NCBI GenBank assembly: GCA_963630775.1
Contig: CAVGNU010000001.1
Span: 28,607 to 92,606 of the forward strand
Length of the DNA: 64,000 bases
Direction of reading: 5' to 3'
From: Bacteroides fragilis
GTDB taxonomy: Bacteria > Pseudomonadota > Alphaproteobacteria > Rs-D84
Shown here: positions 13,338 through 18,795 of the stretch, piece after piece
Position numbering within the stretch: the first letter of the stretch is position 1
How the letters are laid out: every line of letters begins with the position of its first letter
Program-made: the position numbers and the translations under genes
The notes under the pieces: model-generated
The model's input: only the letters and a program-made list of their open reading frames with translations
What the model was told of the DNA's origin: nothing
Database searches by the model: none

Positions 13338-13730
13338 ATGCAAAACACTGAATACTTTGCGTCAATAAACGAAGTGTCCAAACAGTTGGGCATACCCGCG
13401 CATACCCTGCGTTATTGGGAACGCCAGTTTCCCGTTGCCATAAAGCCGACAACGGGGGCGGGCGGTCGCCGTTACTATCGCGTTGAGACGGTTGCACGCC
13501 TGACGGTGATACGTGATTTGCTCTACACACGCGGCATGACAATCGCGGGGGTAAAAAAACTGTTGCGTGATGGCACATTCCCGGACACCGCGTCCGCATT
13601 AAATATTGCGCCGACGGCTGCCGCCACCACCACACCCAGTGCGCCCACACCGCAAAATCACGCCGATGAAATTGACACCGCGATTGATTTATTATTGTCC
13701 GCCAAACAGTTATTGACGGTGGCGCAATGA
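13338..13730 (+). CDS. MerR-family transcriptional regulator
   Basis: N-terminal HTH_MerR (…VSKQLGIPAHTLRYWERQF…GRRYY…). 3' end overlaps the next ORF. Confidence 0.8.
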   Translation: MQNTEYFASINEVSKQLGIPAHTLRYWERQFPVAIKPTTGAGGRRYYRVETVARLTVIRDLLYTRGMTIAGVKKLLRDGTFPDTASALNIAPTAAATTTPSAPTPQNHADEIDTAIDLLLSAKQLLTVAQ

Positions 13731-14482
13731 TATATAAATCAATGCCACATTTTTTAACAAACCTGCTGTGTGCGTTTGTATGGAATAAACGTGAACGCAA
13801 TCGTGTGCGTGCGGTTTTGAATTCGCCAATGGCGCGCGAAATTCGTTTTATTCGTCGCGATTTGGGTACAAAGATATTCAAAATAAAAACATTCGTTGGT
13901 TATCAGGGGCGCAGTTTGCTGATTGCCGTCAACGACCAATGGATATACAAGTTTCCACTGTATCGCAGCAATTTTCGCAAATTGGCGGAAAATGAAAAAC
14001 GCATTGTTGATGCGCTGCAACCGATTTCGCCGATACATATCCCATCGGTTGAATTGCTGTATATGGGGCGCGATAAAATCCCCGTTCGTAAATACGAATT
14101 TGTACATGGTTGTGGCGTGCGCCAGTTAAATCCTAATATGGTCTTGAAATACAAAACAAAATTAGCACGCCAACTGGCAAACTTTTTATATCAGGTGGCC
14201 AGTGCCGATCCCACTGAAATTCGCGATTTGAAACCGACGCCCGATGATGCACCGCGTTATATGTACGGCTGGTCACAGGGTGATTTGTGCGATAACTTTT
14301 TCGCAGATCCCAAAACGATGCAGGTCATTGCAATTATTGATTGGGAAGATGCGCATTTCGGTGACCTGTCGCCCCAGATGGGGTATAACAAAAATTCACC
14401 CCAGCGTGAATTGATGGACGCGGTGCGTCACGAATATGACGTGCTGTATAAATCTGGTTGCAAACGCGTGAAAAAGCGTTAG
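13727..14482 (+). CDS. aminoglycoside-phosphotransferase-like (APH/ChoK fold) kinase family protein
   Basis: C-terminal half has the Brenner and DFG-like motifs of the APH family (…WSQGDLCDNFF…IAIIDWEDAHFGD…). Translationally coupled to the MerR gene (ATGA overlap). Confidence 0.55.
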   Translation: MIYKSMPHFLTNLLCAFVWNKRERNRVRAVLNSPMAREIRFIRRDLGTKIFKIKTFVGYQGRSLLIAVNDQWIYKFPLYRSNFRKLAENEKRIVDALQPISPIHIPSVELLYMGRDKIPVRKYEFVHGCGVRQLNPNMVLKYKTKLARQLANFLYQVASADPTEIRDLKPTPDDAPRYMYGWSQGDLCDNFFADPKTMQVIAIIDWEDAHFGDLSPQMGYNKNSPQRELMDAVRHEYDVLYKSGCKRVKKR

Positions 14483-14504
14483 CATAACCCCGCTGTCGCA
14501 GGGC

Positions 14505-14858
14505 ACTTTTATTTTGGCAGTCCCGTGCGGGGCTTGGCTGCCGCCGCCCTTGCAAAATTTGCTGACGCAAACCGGCATGCGTCCGCCTGCCTTTTTGCCG
14601 CAGGTCGAACCCCAACCGCGGTGTTCGATTCCCCATGTGACATACAACAAAATAAAAACCGCCGAACAAGTCGACGCTTTTTATTTTGGCAGTCCCGTGC
14701 GGGGCTTGGCTGCCGCCGCCCTTGCAAAATTTGCTGACGCAAACCGGCATGCGTCCGCCTGCCTTTTTGCCGCAGGTCGAACCCCAACCGCGGTGTTCGA
14801 TTCCCCATGTGACATACAACAAAATAAAAACCGCCGAACAAGTCGGCGTTCTTTATTT
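14505..14858. repeat. two tandem 172-bp direct repeats, each ending (minus-strand sense) with the tRNA-Glu 3' terminus GGGACUGCCA plus a terminator hairpin
   Basis: Units 14515-14686 and 14687-14858 are >95% identical. Each starts (plus strand) with TGGCAGTCCC, identical to the 3' end of the adjacent tRNA-Glu, and contains T-arm-like GGTTCGA segments and a CGCCGAC…GTCGGCG hairpin with a T-run. Confidence 0.8.
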
Positions 14859-14933
14859 TGGCAGTCCCAAGGGGAATCGAACCCCTGTTCTCAGAATGAG
14901 AATCTGATGTCCTGACCGCTAGACGATGGGACC
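14859..14933 (-). tRNA. tRNA-Glu (anticodon CUC)
   Basis: Hand-folded cloverleaf: GGTCCCA acceptor, anticodon stem TCAGA/TCTGA with loop TTCTCAT, T-arm AGGGG-TTCGATT-CCCCT, 3' TGGGACT-G-CCA. Terminator immediately downstream. Confidence 0.85.
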
Positions 14934-15046
14934 AAACGGCATAATCATATCAGGATTTTTTGCGCTTTGCAAATAATTCAGCGCGATTGACAAAAATCCA
15001 AGGTTGTTTTAGAATCCGACCGTAATGACTTTTATACGGGGGTAGC

Positions 15047-16093
15047 ATGTTACGCAAACTGTCTAAAATATTTATCGGACTGGCAATCGTTGTTGGCGTA
15101 ATCAGCGCGGGATTGTTGCTGTCACATACGTACTTTAACGATTATTTCTTTGATTCAATTACCGGTATGCAGCATCCCGCATCAAAGTTCTTGTCGCCTG
15201 ACGCGCGCGATTTAACCATTCTGGTTGCAGCGGATTCTGGGTCTAATAATTACGTGCTGGAAAATGTAATTGCAGACGCACGCCGCATTGAACCAAAGTA
15301 CGATTTTATGATGCATTTGGGCGATATGGCTATAACGGGATCTATCACCGGTTATTATTGGATGTTGGAAGAAATCAGACCCCGTCTGGGCGATATTCCA
15401 TTGTTCGCCGTCCCTGGCAATCACGACGTAACCCAGCATATCGGCTATGCCAAATACGAACATTATAACAAGGCACTGTACAGCACGGTTATGGGCCTGC
15501 CATATTATTGGTTCGGCTATGGTGATACATTGTTTATCGTACTGGATACATCAACATTGGATGTTGATGATGAACAGTTTGTTTGGCTGGATCAGACCAT
15601 GACCAAAATTCGCCCAATGTTCCGCCACTGTGTAATATTCAACCATATGCCACCGGTCAACGCGCGCCCTGATTTTATCAAGGGACACACAATGGCCCCC
15701 GCGATGGCTGAAAAATTGGCGGCGGTAATCCAGAAACATCATAAAAAGATTGATGCAATGTTGTGCGGTCATGTCCACTTTACATCACAAACCAAATGGG
15801 CGGGCATTCCTCTGTACACCGTCACCGCCAGTGGTCAGGGCGTTCGTGACAAAGACAACCCAAACTATGGCTATGCGGTCTTGAAAATTTCCAAGAATGG
15901 CGCGGTTACGGTCGAACCACACCATATCGCACATCAGGGTGCATTGCGTGAATATTTCGAAGAATGGTGGGCGCGTGATTTGTTGAGTGTCAAAGCCCAA
16001 GAATTACTGTCCACATTGTTGCAAGTATTCGGCGTGTGCTTGGTGCTGGGGATTGGCCTGCGCCTGTATGATAAATACCGCACCACCAAGTAA
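15047..16093 (+). CDS. membrane-anchored calcineurin-like metallophosphoesterase
   Basis: N- and C-terminal TM helices. Metallophos motifs GDMAITG, VPGNHD, GHVH. Confidence 0.8.
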   Translation: MLRKLSKIFIGLAIVVGVISAGLLLSHTYFNDYFFDSITGMQHPASKFLSPDARDLTILVAADSGSNNYVLENVIADARRIEPKYDFMMHLGDMAITGSITGYYWMLEEIRPRLGDIPLFAVPGNHDVTQHIGYAKYEHYNKALYSTVMGLPYYWFGYGDTLFIVLDTSTLDVDDEQFVWLDQTMTKIRPMFRHCVIFNHMPPVNARPDFIKGHTMAPAMAEKLAAVIQKHHKKIDAMLCGHVHFTSQTKWAGIPLYTVTASGQGVRDKDNPNYGYAVLKISKNGAVTVEPHHIAHQGALREYFEEWWARDLLSVKAQELLSTLLQVFGVCLVLGIGLRLYDKYRTTK

Positions 16094-16169
16094 TCAAAAA
16101 TCCCACGTCTGTGGGATTTTTGATTTTCGGTTATGCTTGGTGTGTAATTCTCAAACGGTTCAAGTGATT

Positions 16170-16847
16170 TTATTCGTATTTTTTTAGTAACTCTTTCCAC
16201 ACTTGTGGTGCATTTACTTCATCAAAGTAGTCATTCAAAAATTTAACAATGGTTTGATGTTTCCTTTCTGCATATTTGCGTCCTGGTTCAGTTAAACACA
16301 TATCGCGCAAATGAAATATTTTAACAAAAAAGTGATTTACGCACGAATCGATTTTTGATTTTCTGTACGTTTCGGCATCCATTTCTTTTGGAAAATAATC
16401 TGGGTCAAAAAATGGTTGGCCTGTTCCAGACCGATATTCAATACACCGTAACAGACCTGTGCATCCGGACGCGTCGCACATGTCTGCATCGGACACAACA
16501 GCACCTTCGATACCGTATACTGCAATACCCTTTAACCGTTTACTGTATCCAATAGTTTTTACAATATTGATACATTTTTTACAGAATTCGGCATCAAATC
16601 CAGACCCCGATAGTATACGTTTAGTATTGGTCATCAGACGTTCTGATTCTTCGCCAAACAGTTTATAATCATCACAATCATGCAATAATGCCGCTGCGGC
16701 CACCAAATCACGATTAGCGGATGGAATACCTTCACAAAATTTCATTGCCGTGTTATAAACACGAAACACGTGTTGATGGTCATGTCCATTAGAGTTTGTT
16801 TTAAGTAATTCAAACACCTCGTTTTTTATATATTTAATGCCTGTCAT
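16170..16847 (-). CDS. HD-domain metal-dependent phosphohydrolase
   Basis: H…HD…H…D signature (HDHQHVFRV…ALLHDCDDYK…). AT-rich gene. Confidence 0.75.
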   Translation of the reverse strand: MTGIKYIKNEVFELLKTNSNGHDHQHVFRVYNTAMKFCEGIPSANRDLVAAAALLHDCDDYKLFGEESERLMTNTKRILSGSGFDAEFCKKCINIVKTIGYSKRLKGIAVYGIEGAVVSDADMCDASGCTGLLRCIEYRSGTGQPFFDPDYFPKEMDAETYRKSKIDSCVNHFFVKIFHLRDMCLTEPGRKYAERKHQTIVKFLNDYFDEVNAPQVWKELLKKYE

Positions 16848-17436
16848 ACCAGATCCTTTTTCTTGCCGTATGATATGTTATCATAAAAAATTTACATTGC
16901 GTATACCACAATAAAAAACGCCCCGTGCGGGCGTTGTTTATTGGTGTCGGCAGCAACCATAAAACAATGGTTTACAATAATTCCACAGATGTTATAACTG
17001 TGTCGGCTGACAGCGGAATATATAAAATAAAGCCGGACAGCGCGCTGAATATTTATTCCGCAGAAAACCTGACCATAAACAGTGCTGGTGAAAACGGTTC
17101 GCAGACAAACGTCGTGCGGCAATTAAATACTCCGGCGGTAATATTGGATGTTTTTCCAGGATTTTTCCTGGGGATAATCCCTATACTGGTGGATGCCGTG
17201 TCAAACAATCTGTATAAAATGCCATCAACATACTCGTATTCGTGTTGATACATCACCCGCAACTGTGGGGGATTTTAATTGGACTTGTCACGCAATATTG
17301 TGGTATAAGAAATAATAAAATATAACGACGGGGGCAAAATGTATTTTTACGAAAAACATAAAAGATTGTTCAAAAAATTGTTCAGTATATTTATTTCATC
17401 ACGCAGCCATAGATATTATTTGAATACAATTTTATC

Positions 17437-18267
17437 GTGGCCGGGGGGGGGGGGGGAGATTTTAGAAACAAAGAAAAGCAGTTAATGACGGCGCGGTCGG
17501 AGAAATCAGAATTTCCAAATTTTCTGTCTGTGGTTGCCATTATGAAAAATGAAGCGAAATATTTGCAGGAATGGTTGGAATATTACAGGATTATTGGGGT
17601 GGATAAATTTTATCTGTATGATAACGGCAGCACAGATGAAACAGCAAAAATTTTGAAACCGTATATAGAATCTGGAATTGTCGAGTTAACTTATTTGCTG
17701 GGCGAAAAAATGCAGATTCCCGCATATACAGATTTTATAACACGTTTCAAAAATGATACTAAATGGGCCATAATTGTAGATTTGGATGAATTTGTTGTTT
17801 CCAAAAAGTGTGGCATAACCGATTTCTTGAGAAAATTACCAAACAAAGTCTCACAGATAATTGTGCCGTGGATTTTCTTTGGTTCAAATGGGCATAAAAC
17901 ACAACCAGATGGGTTGGTCATTGAAAATTATACTAAACGAGCCACAAAACCACGATTGTATAAATCTATTATAAATCCACGACGGGTTCTGGTAATGAAA
18001 TGTCATGAGCACACGGTGGTTGGAAAAACAATTTTTCAAAAAATGGATACTTTGTTGGTAAATCACTATTATTGCAAATCTCTGCAAGAGTATTTACGAC
18101 GCGCAAACCGTGGTGATGCGTTGAATGGGAATGATTTTGCACAAAAAGAATTTGTTAAATCTACATTTGATAAATTTGATACGAATGATGTGCCAGATTT
18201 GTTTATTCAGCAATATGTTCCAGCAATAAAAGACAGAATGAAAAAATTTATCCCGCCACAGGGGTAA
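17437..18267 (+). CDS. glycosyltransferase (GT2-like / GT92-DUF23-type fold)
   Basis: Motifs …VVAIMKNEAKYLQEWLEYYRIIGVDKFYLYDNGSTDET… and …IIVDLDEF…. Very AT-rich relative to flanking genes. In-frame ATG at 17485 is an alternative start. Confidence 0.7.
   Translation: MAGGGGGDFRNKEKQLMTARSEKSEFPNFLSVVAIMKNEAKYLQEWLEYYRIIGVDKFYLYDNGSTDETAKILKPYIESGIVELTYLLGEKMQIPAYTDFITRFKNDTKWAIIVDLDEFVVSKKCGITDFLRKLPNKVSQIIVPWIFFGSNGHKTQPDGLVIENYTKRATKPRLYKSIINPRRVLVMKCHEHTVVGKTIFQKMDTLLVNHYYCKSLQEYLRRANRGDALNGNDFAQKEFVKSTFDKFDTNDVPDLFIQQYVPAIKDRMKKFIPPQG
17443..17456 (+). repeat. G14 homopolymeric tract (candidate slipped-strand phase-variation switch)
   Basis: 14 consecutive G at the 5' end of the glycosyltransferase ORF. 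The upstream ORF from ATG 17339 terminates just after the tract in the +1 frame. One extra G would fuse the two frames. Confidence 0.8.
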
Positions 18268-18345
18268 GATTCTTGGAAACTATGTGGAGGAGATAGGACA
18301 TGCCGGGTTCCCTCGGCACAGTTGTGGCTGCAAAATGGGGGATAT

Positions 18346-18591
18346 CTAATTCCAGAAATGTCTGTTCGCGAATGCCTGACCTGAACCTGTTTTCAGATAT
18401 TTTTCAAATTCGGCGGCGGCATGACGACCAGAAAAGGCGAAATAATTCACCAATTTCCATGGTGTGTACTTTGATGTGTGAAACGAATAACCAGAATTGT
18501 GTTGTTTCAGTCGTTTTTGTAAATCATCGGTCATACCAATGTACCGTTGGTCTGGATTTGAAATACTTCTGATTAAATATACGTAAAACAT
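18346..18591 (-). CDS. GIY-YIG nuclease superfamily protein (UPF0213/YhbQ-like)
   Basis: Trimmed to ATG 18591 (MFYVYLIRS…) so it does not run into the tRNA. GIY…YIG motif YVYLIRS…RYIGMTDDLQKRLKQHN. Confidence 0.65.
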   Translation of the reverse strand: MFYVYLIRSISNPDQRYIGMTDDLQKRLKQHNSGYSFHTSKYTPWKLVNYFAFSGRHAAAEFEKYLKTGSGQAFANRHFWN

Positions 18592-18721
18592 AATTCCATA
18601 ATAAAAAAACAGGAAATAAACGTCAAGTAATTCGCCACACTTCGTTAAAACTACGTGTGGCACTCCTTCTTGTAACTGTGCCGCTTGGGCTTGCCGCCCG
18701 AAGCGTCGCAGACGCGAAGGG

Positions 18722-18795
18722 TGGTTGGGGCGCACGGATTCGAACCATGATAAAGAGAACCAAAATCTCTTGTCCTACCATTAGACGACACCCCA
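18722..18795 (-). tRNA. tRNA-Gln (anticodon UUG)
   Basis: Hand-folded: TGGGGTG acceptor (U1-A72 as in Gln), D-stem GTCT/GGAC, anticodon stem AGAGA/TCTCT with loop TTTTGGT, T-arm CATGG-TTCGAAT-CCGTG, CGCCCCA-A-CCA. Confidence 0.85.

Follow-up and report, generated by a model that had tools for sequence, protein, structure and literature searches.

The window analysed here, a stretch of 64 kb in full (contig CAVGNU010000001.1, assembly GCA_963630775.1), carries on its minus strand a tRNA-Glu(CUC) gene with an encoded CCA (14859-14933; detected by ARAGORN and scored at 61.9 bits by the Rfam tRNA model) and, overlapping and abutting its 3' end on the same strand, a tandem array of 172-nt units. 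The neighbouring genes on one side are gyrA and those of a MerR regulator and an APH-like kinase; a metallophosphoesterase gene lies on the other side. Tandem Repeats Finder delineates the array at 14507-14868 (-), with a period of 172, 2.1 copies and 98% matches, and an independent repeat search of the window returns two 172-nt copies at 99% identity. The proximal unit spans 14687-14858 (-) and the distal one 14515-14686 (-), and they differ by three substitutions, all within the 5' flank or the stem of the terminator hairpin. A covariance model of the aligned units (R1) matches them at 14687-14809 and 14515-14637, with 149 bits each; it detects exactly two copies across the 64-kb window, and no copies beyond the known units in any of the related loci fetched. 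An initial annotation of this DNA had described two near-identical 172-bp tandem units, which is borne out (3 differences, 98-99% matches), but had placed them upstream of the tRNA gene; in the tRNA sense they lie downstream (3'). By its layout, the array very probably belongs to the tRNA-linked repeats (TLRs), a kind first described downstream of Escherichia coli tyrT (PMC8144298).

The repeat starts inside the tRNA-Glu 3' end, with its last 10 nt (GGGACTGCCA). A junction 17-mer, GGGACTGCCAAAATAAA, composed of these 10 nt and of 7 nt of trailer, is found three times, always on the minus strand (14508-14524, 14680-14696 and 14852-14868), for a chance expectation of zero, confirming the earlier statement that the units end as the tRNA does. 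The copy at 14508-14524 (tRNA 3' end followed by AAAATAAA) closes the array as its final 0.1 copy. Read in the tRNA sense, each unit is composed of five parts. The first is an AAATAAA trailer followed by an intrinsic-terminator hairpin and a U run. The second, GUUGUAUGUCACAUGGGGAAUCGAAC, repeats the tRNA acceptor 3' strand and T arm imperfectly and in inverted orientation. An inverted-repeat search identified GGGGAATCGAAC (14795-14806, second copy 14623-14634, -) as a 12-nt exact inverted copy of tRNA-Glu GTTCGATTCCCC, that is of the T loop and 3' T stem; it sits within a 42-nt, 71% complementary inverted repeat formed with the tRNA 3' part, the terminator being at its centre. The third part, GGGGUUCGA, repeats the 5' half of the T arm in direct orientation; within it, GGGGTTCGA (14777-14785, second copy 14605-14613, -) marks the left edge of the core common to the units described here and to those of a second tRNA locus (see below). 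The T-arm-like motifs noticed at the outset correspond to these two elements, GGGGAATCGAAC being inverted and GGGGTTCGA direct. The fourth part is a conserved core of ~80 nt harboring at least two hairpins. The fifth, AAG-CCCC-GCAC-GGGACUGCCA, reproduces the 3' strands of the T stem and of the acceptor with slight divergence, and has a GCCA end. Its last 10 nt are exactly those of tRNA-Glu and the CCCC T-stem strand is kept, while a GCAC linker replaces TT. This unit end has the look of 17-19 nt copied from the tRNA and since diverged; in effect, the core appears to be placed inside the T loop of a partial tRNA copy. The same block of at least 60 nt (tRNA 3' end and terminator) stands at the start and at the end of each unit, and the repeated block takes in 60-90 nt of trailer besides the tRNA end. 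The unit is not protein-coding, since a period of 172 does not make a whole number of codons and its homologues display indels of 1, 4-5 and 12-13 nt.

Upstream of tRNA-Glu, a sigma-70-like promoter (14944-14973, -) is predicted, with a TTGCAA box, a 17-nt spacer and a TATGAT box preceded by TG. It is the only one found on the array strand, as no promoter-like site is detected within the units. The tRNA is followed by an intrinsic-terminator hairpin, CGCCGAC-TTG-TTCGGCG, then GTTTTTATTT (14832-14848, -), and an identical hairpin and U run follow the proximal unit (14660-14676, -). This hairpin type is also present in outgroup loci and represents the ancestral state of the tRNA-Glu terminator. 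Behind the distal unit stands another hairpin, CCCCGCTGTCGCAGGGC and a plus-strand T run (14488-14504, +), likely the terminator of the convergent APH-like gene; the claim that the same terminator follows each tRNA end therefore holds for the tRNA and the proximal unit, but not for the distal one. As a separate observation, the two hairpins, A (CGCCGAC-TTG-TTCGGCG) and B (GCCCTGCGACAGCGGGG), are unrelated, yet occupy the same position in an otherwise identical repeat context. Comparison of the window with L003, L013, L016, L027, L028 and L030 reveals the orders A-A, A-B, B-A and B-B-A among strains, the window being A-A-B.

Related loci were fetched through homologues of the kinase and by DNA-pattern scans of genome and metagenome collections. 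The kinase homologues belong to uncultured gut Alphaproteobacteria, and the contigs from the genome scan include Alphaproteobacteria bacterium UBA6376 and uncultured Rickettsiales bacterium UMGS860; 8 of the 11 genome-scan matches, as well as L029, were chance matches and were rejected. The comparison of the tRNA-Glu locus among relatives, proposed in the initial annotation, reveals that the unit may be present or absent, in zero, one or two copies. L002 has no unit and one solo repeat; L003/L004, L013, L016, L020 (whose contig is shared with L031), L028 and L030 carry one unit; two units are found in the window and, independently, in L027, within a 589-kb contig of a separate metagenome assembly. 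All of these loci, the window included, share 90-95% nucleotide identity in the kinase gene. In outgroups (~66% identity), tRNA-Glu is followed by the same terminator type and directly by the kinase stop codon, with no unit. Since close relatives carry zero, one or two units and distant ones the terminator only, the array represents a real insertion restricted to this lineage, with a copy number that varies between close relatives. Unequal homologous recombination or replication slippage between the common blocks would add or remove whole units, and would explain these copy numbers.

That the second copy might be an assembly duplication artefact, or the unit a degenerate tRNA or transfer-messenger RNA (tmRNA) gene, is very improbable. 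The 27.9-kb contig of a close relative (L001, 6857-6912) does stop inside a unit, where its terminator hairpin stands. Assemblies break at repeats in this manner, and the case suggests that the repeat is disruptive for short-read assemblies; furthermore, the unit contains GGTTCGA and ends in CCA. However, the two copies of the window differ at three positions, and two copies are also present in the independent 589-kb contig. ARAGORN detects the real tRNA-Glu only, with no further tRNA in the units, and the tRNA-clan and tmRNA models of Rfam do not match the units at E values up to 10, so that the pseudo-tRNA (or tmRNA) reading raised previously is rejected. Nor do the units correspond to a structured RNA family of Rfam, a possibility also envisaged: none matches them beyond noise.

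A homologous core is found downstream of a different tRNA, tRNA-Arg(UCU), in L025/L026 (from the metagenome scan), L033 and L035; further Arg loci were fetched through the neighbouring kinase. In L025/L026, a direct repeat of 92 nt (100% identity, spacing 163) begins at AATCCTGCAGGGCGCGCCA, which represents the last 19 nt of tRNA-Arg(UCU), from position A58 of the T loop. The Arg trailer harbors, ahead of the core, an inverted copy (16/16 nt) of tRNA-Arg GTCGCAGGTTCGAATC in the T arm. In both families, the core is preceded by a terminator and an inverted T-arm copy, and it splits a copy of the T arm of the cognate tRNA into two halves. Wherever a unit occurs at a related Glu or Arg locus, it directly follows the tRNA on the same strand. 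Glu and Arg units align with 70/81 identities and a local alignment score of 112, as compared to 16.2 +/- 2.4 for shuffles, and their common block starts exactly at GGTTCGACC and ends at CAGCCAA(G/T)CC. The core looks as though it had been inserted, at each locus, into the T loop of a partially copied upstream tRNA. In one sample, two Glu units are carried by NODE-1 (14.7x) and one Arg unit by NODE-4 (15.5x), and their equal coverage indicates that both contigs probably belong to one genome.

The Arg units of L033 and L035 are diverged, and that of L034 (1449-1500) is an internally deleted remnant of which only the trailer and TCGCGCCA are left. Decayed further copies follow the intact Arg unit in L026 (1863-1966, equivalent to L025 2422-2525) and in L033 (~2400-2480); they still end in GCGCCA and the trailer start (weak R1 match, 12.5 bits, E 0.09). 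L040 and L041 have no unit at the Arg locus. The Arg unit persists across genomes whose neighbouring proteins share 68-91% identity, and these loci document the birth, divergence and decay of units over a wider evolutionary span. More remote homologues of the kinase beside tRNA-Arg (P0127, P0128) led to loci that were not syntenic, hence uninformative, and were set aside.

Position A58 of the T loop is a classical crossover position for tRNA-targeting integrases, and the duplicated segment of the Arg locus begins there. This brings in the reading of an integrative-element scar, already put forward in the initial annotation, or of a miniature derivative of such an element: a tyrosine integrase acting at the T loop would have left att-type copies of the tRNA end, and the core would be a remnant of an attP arm, perhaps mobilised in trans in the manner of cis-mobilisable elements. 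Consistent with it, a single core accompanies two different tRNAs and carries the cognate 3' end at each, and the site is filled or empty among relatives; the attL/attR sites of genomic islands, P4-like prophages and cis-mobilisable elements similarly display a direct repeat of the tRNA 3' end from the T loop at sites that are filled or empty. However, no Pfam integrase is found among the open reading frames (ORFs) of at least 150 residues at window positions 444-37967, nor in the related loci fetched. No island separates the tRNA 3' end from the neighbouring gene on that side in ~20 related loci, where the distance is at most about 350 bp, and the copies of the tRNA end in the window are spaced by 155 nt only. 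Searches of phage and plasmid collections by blastn gave no relevant match, and four of five viral-contig scans gave none at all; the match from the fifth (L024) was rejected as a chance 17-mer within a coding sequence. Besides lacking integrase, island cargo and phage or plasmid similarity in these searches, the locus differs from att sites in that the duplicated block takes in the whole 60-90-nt trailer with its terminator, and in that the units are reiterated head to tail. The scar reading has thus gained little support and is considered improbable.

The core was also analysed for conserved RNA structure. Two hairpins are recognised in the window: Ha (14746-14763, second copy 14574-14591, -), a GGCA...TGCC stem with covarying closing and tip pairs (53-64, 55-62), and Hx, or helix 3 (14730-14743, second copy 14558-14571, -), TTTGC-GTCA-GCAAA. 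Over 11 distinct units, a four-helix structure derived from these same sequences has 97.3% of its cells occupied by standard pairs, versus 20-47% when the partners are slid by 1-3 columns. Five pairs are changed on both sides, a number reached by 2 of 500 shuffles. The fourth pair of Ha (GGCR...YGCC) is A-U, G-U or G-C among units, and the Hx stem, UUUGC-N4-GCAAA in most of them, is wholly replaced by compensatory changes in the two tRNA-Arg-type homologues L033 (UCGCC-GACA-GGCGA) and L035 (UCCACC-N14-GGUGGA). G-U pairs number 9 on the tRNA-sense strand versus 2 on the antisense strand, and invariant stretches such as GCAAATTTTGCAAGGGCGGCG stand beside hypervariable hairpin stems in which pairing is kept. 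Other pairings did not survive examination. Changes between the window and L003 gave a compensatory appearance to two hand-drawn hairpins, CCUGC/GCAGG and GACGCA/UGCGUC, which were rejected as only 3-5 of 9 sequences are paired at the variable positions. An outer pairing GCAAA/UUUGC proposed by RNAalifold was likewise discarded, since L033 and L035 replace UUUGC, which pairs locally as Hx.

The closest known parallel is found in E. coli, in which 22 TLRs have been reported at ten loci, with 1-5 per locus, all in tRNA or rRNA operons, their ends being identical over 18-19 nt to the 3' end of the upstream gene (PMC8144298). Although TLRs have been known since 1978, a function is known only for RrA, RrB and RrF. 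These three are bracketed by dual terminators, owe their transcription to read-through and are apparently trimmed at the repeated 3' motif; the origin of TLRs is not accounted for in the 2021 paper (PMC8144298). The E. coli tyrT locus (L032), used for comparison, displays a period of 178 with 3.1 copies, and four matches to the RtT model (133-137 bits) that serve as a positive control. The tyrT unit harbors an anti-segment complementary to the tRNA-Tyr 3' part (GGGGAAGGAT), then a copy of the T arm 5' half (AAGGTTCGA) and a 66-nt structured insert, and ends with the last 19 nt of tRNA-Tyr from A58 (AATCCTTCCCCCACCACCA). GGTTCGA stands 94 nt from the 3' end in the E. coli unit, and 95 nt from it in the unit of the Arg locus.

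The array and the 178-bp repeat of E. coli tyrT/tyrV (RtT/RttR, RF00391) thus share head-to-tail units located behind a tRNA on the same strand; units ending in the upstream tRNA 3' end from the T loop onwards, over 19 nt in E. coli as at the Arg locus; an order of anti-segment, xxGGTTCGA, structured insert of ~65-80 nt, AAT/AAG with the T-stem 3' strand, acceptor and CCA; and a family spread over several tRNA loci with a variable copy number. Several of the traits that define TLRs are found here as well: a same-strand position adjacent to a stable RNA gene, 0-2 tandem units, several loci with cognate 3' ends and, at the tRNA-Arg locus, an identity to the tRNA end of 19 nt at 100%, within the range of 18-19 nt. 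The array and the E. coli repeat differ in their host, here an uncultured gut alphaproteobacterium, in their partner tRNAs, Glu(CUC) and Arg(UCU), and in the intrinsic terminator present inside every unit here. RrA, RrB and RrF (from rrnA, rrnB and rrnD) are likewise TLR-family sequences standing between two terminators and ending as a copy of the upstream stable-RNA 3' end; they are linked to 5S rRNA instead of a tRNA, have been shown to bind Hfq and CsrA via GGA motifs, and serve as the model for the expression route proposed below. No homology to RtT was detected, whether by local alignment or with covariance models run in either direction: R1 has no match on the E. coli tyrT locus, and alignments between the units and RtT score at shuffle level. 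Because neither sequence nor model similarity to RtT is found and the closing helix is not significant (see below), the array is filed with the TLRs by layout, and apart from the RtT family by homology. The initial annotation rightly regarded tandem reiteration with terminators as unusual, but the arrangement is of a known kind, that of the E. coli TLRs (PMC8144298). The tRNA-derived small RNA genes, one of the three readings first envisaged, come closest.

On balance, the array probably represents a new family of TLR type in a new bacterial class. In this reading, the units would be transcribed from the tRNA-Glu promoter by read-through of a leaky first terminator; the sequence prerequisites are present, as terminators bracket the proximal unit and no internal promoter is found. 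By analogy with what has been argued for E. coli RrB, the units would then be cut out by the enzymes that mature tRNA 3' ends, and the product would be a structured RNA of ~120-170 nt, whose level would track transcription of the tRNA operon. That the array also yields such a functional processed RNA can be put forward only tentatively. As for the core, its spread from one tRNA gene to another would rely on recombination with the conserved T-loop halves as anchors, or on a putative recombinase.

Several results weigh against this interpretation. Single-sequence folding of the window unit is no stabler than that of shuffles (z -0.3 to -1.3), and the power of the covariation analysis is low because the 11 distinct sequences fall into two shallow clades; templated (quasi-palindrome) mutation in DNA hairpins can also mimic compensation without selection on RNA. 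The overall identity of the units, ~90-93%, corresponds to a divergence no lower than that of adjacent coding DNA. A tRNA-minihelix-like closing helix, formed by the anti-segment and the tRNA-derived 3' strand, is not significant in Glu and Arg units (z +0.6, -0.3 and +0.4), whereas that of E. coli RtT is (z -3.4). The window units match the tRNA end exactly over 10 nt, not 18-19. The Rfam RtT model (RF00391) has no match in the window array or the Arg unit at E values up to 10, nor on L026 and L027 at its gathering score (45 bits). Finally, a proper terminator right behind tRNA-Glu may leave little read-through.

The main rival explanation is a non-functional DNA by-product: fold-back or template switching at the terminator palindrome would have copied parts of the tRNA 3' end, both inverted and direct, slippage would have amplified the copy, and drift and deletion would have followed, with no role for an RNA. 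Such an origin agrees with the 42-nt imperfect inverted repeat centred on the terminator, with the presence or absence of units among close relatives, with the decayed or deleted units in L034 and in the L026 and L033 tails and the solo repeat of L002, with a divergence akin to that of the flanking DNA and with the non-significant folding scores; moreover, the E. coli TLRs of tRNA operons are themselves still without known function (PMC8144298). It accounts less readily for the same 80-nt core being retained at two different tRNA loci, for stretches such as GCAAATTTTGCAAGGGCGGCG remaining invariant beside hypervariable stems that keep their pairing, for the persistence of the Arg unit over 68-91% identity of the neighbouring proteins and for the preference of G-U pairs for one strand. 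It is judged somewhat unlikely.

The surroundings of the array have their own features. An AT-rich stretch at 16-19 kb (GC 0.38) had been taken to border the array; it is located on the other (5') side of tRNA-Glu, with the metallophosphoesterase gene in between. The region from tRNA-Glu to tRNA-Gln (15047-18795, tRNA-Gln being at 18722-18795, -) is a hypervariable slot that in the window contains the metallophosphoesterase, an HD-domain protein, a GT92/GT2 glycosyltransferase and a 90-residue ORF, and in relatives an M23 peptidase (L005), a 148-residue ORF (L009) or 408- and 175-residue ORFs (L003). As this slot lies 3' of tRNA-Gln, any integration there would concern tRNA-Gln and not the array. 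Near the tRNA-Gln and tRNA-Trp genes of the window, no repeat of the respective 3' end is found; a faint likeness of the tRNA-Gln trailer to the core (GGGCGGC..AGCC.AAGC) was rejected, its alignment being at shuffle level. At both loci, perhaps by coincidence, the next gene on the array side encodes an APH-family (PF01636) phosphotransferase (13727-14482 in the window, 2013-2984 in L026); its orientation is convergent in the Glu case and co-directional in the Arg case. The C-terminus of the window protein is shorter than, and different from, those of all relatives. The window is without the ~190 nt that separate the last repeat from the kinase stop codon in L027, L016 and L002; this missing stretch includes a CATTGCGAG...GCAATCC element, homology picks up again at GCGTTTGCAACC, and the truncation of the last repeat of the array is in keeping with this loss.

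As an independent family of TLR layout in a class distant from E. coli, the array and its relatives provide comparative material on selection and on the movement of a core between tRNA genes. They offer variants with zero, one or two copies, one core at two tRNAs and several decay intermediates, and the features of most interest are the A58 breakpoint, the split T arm and the inverted T-arm copy. On a practical level, such arrays break metagenome assemblies and can pass for integration scars. A broader reading, which we consider unlikely, is that TLR-type units, beyond enterobacteria as well, arise in a general and recurrent way when a structured RNA of ~70-80 nt becomes embedded within the T loop of a partially copied tRNA, directly behind the parent gene, with the universally conserved GGTTCGA...AAT of the T loop acting as a recombination anchor or as the target of a recombinase. 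If this were true, the core could hop between tRNA genes, acquiring each cognate 3' end, and the resulting RNAs would be matured by the tRNA-processing enzymes and would report on the transcription of the tRNA operon.

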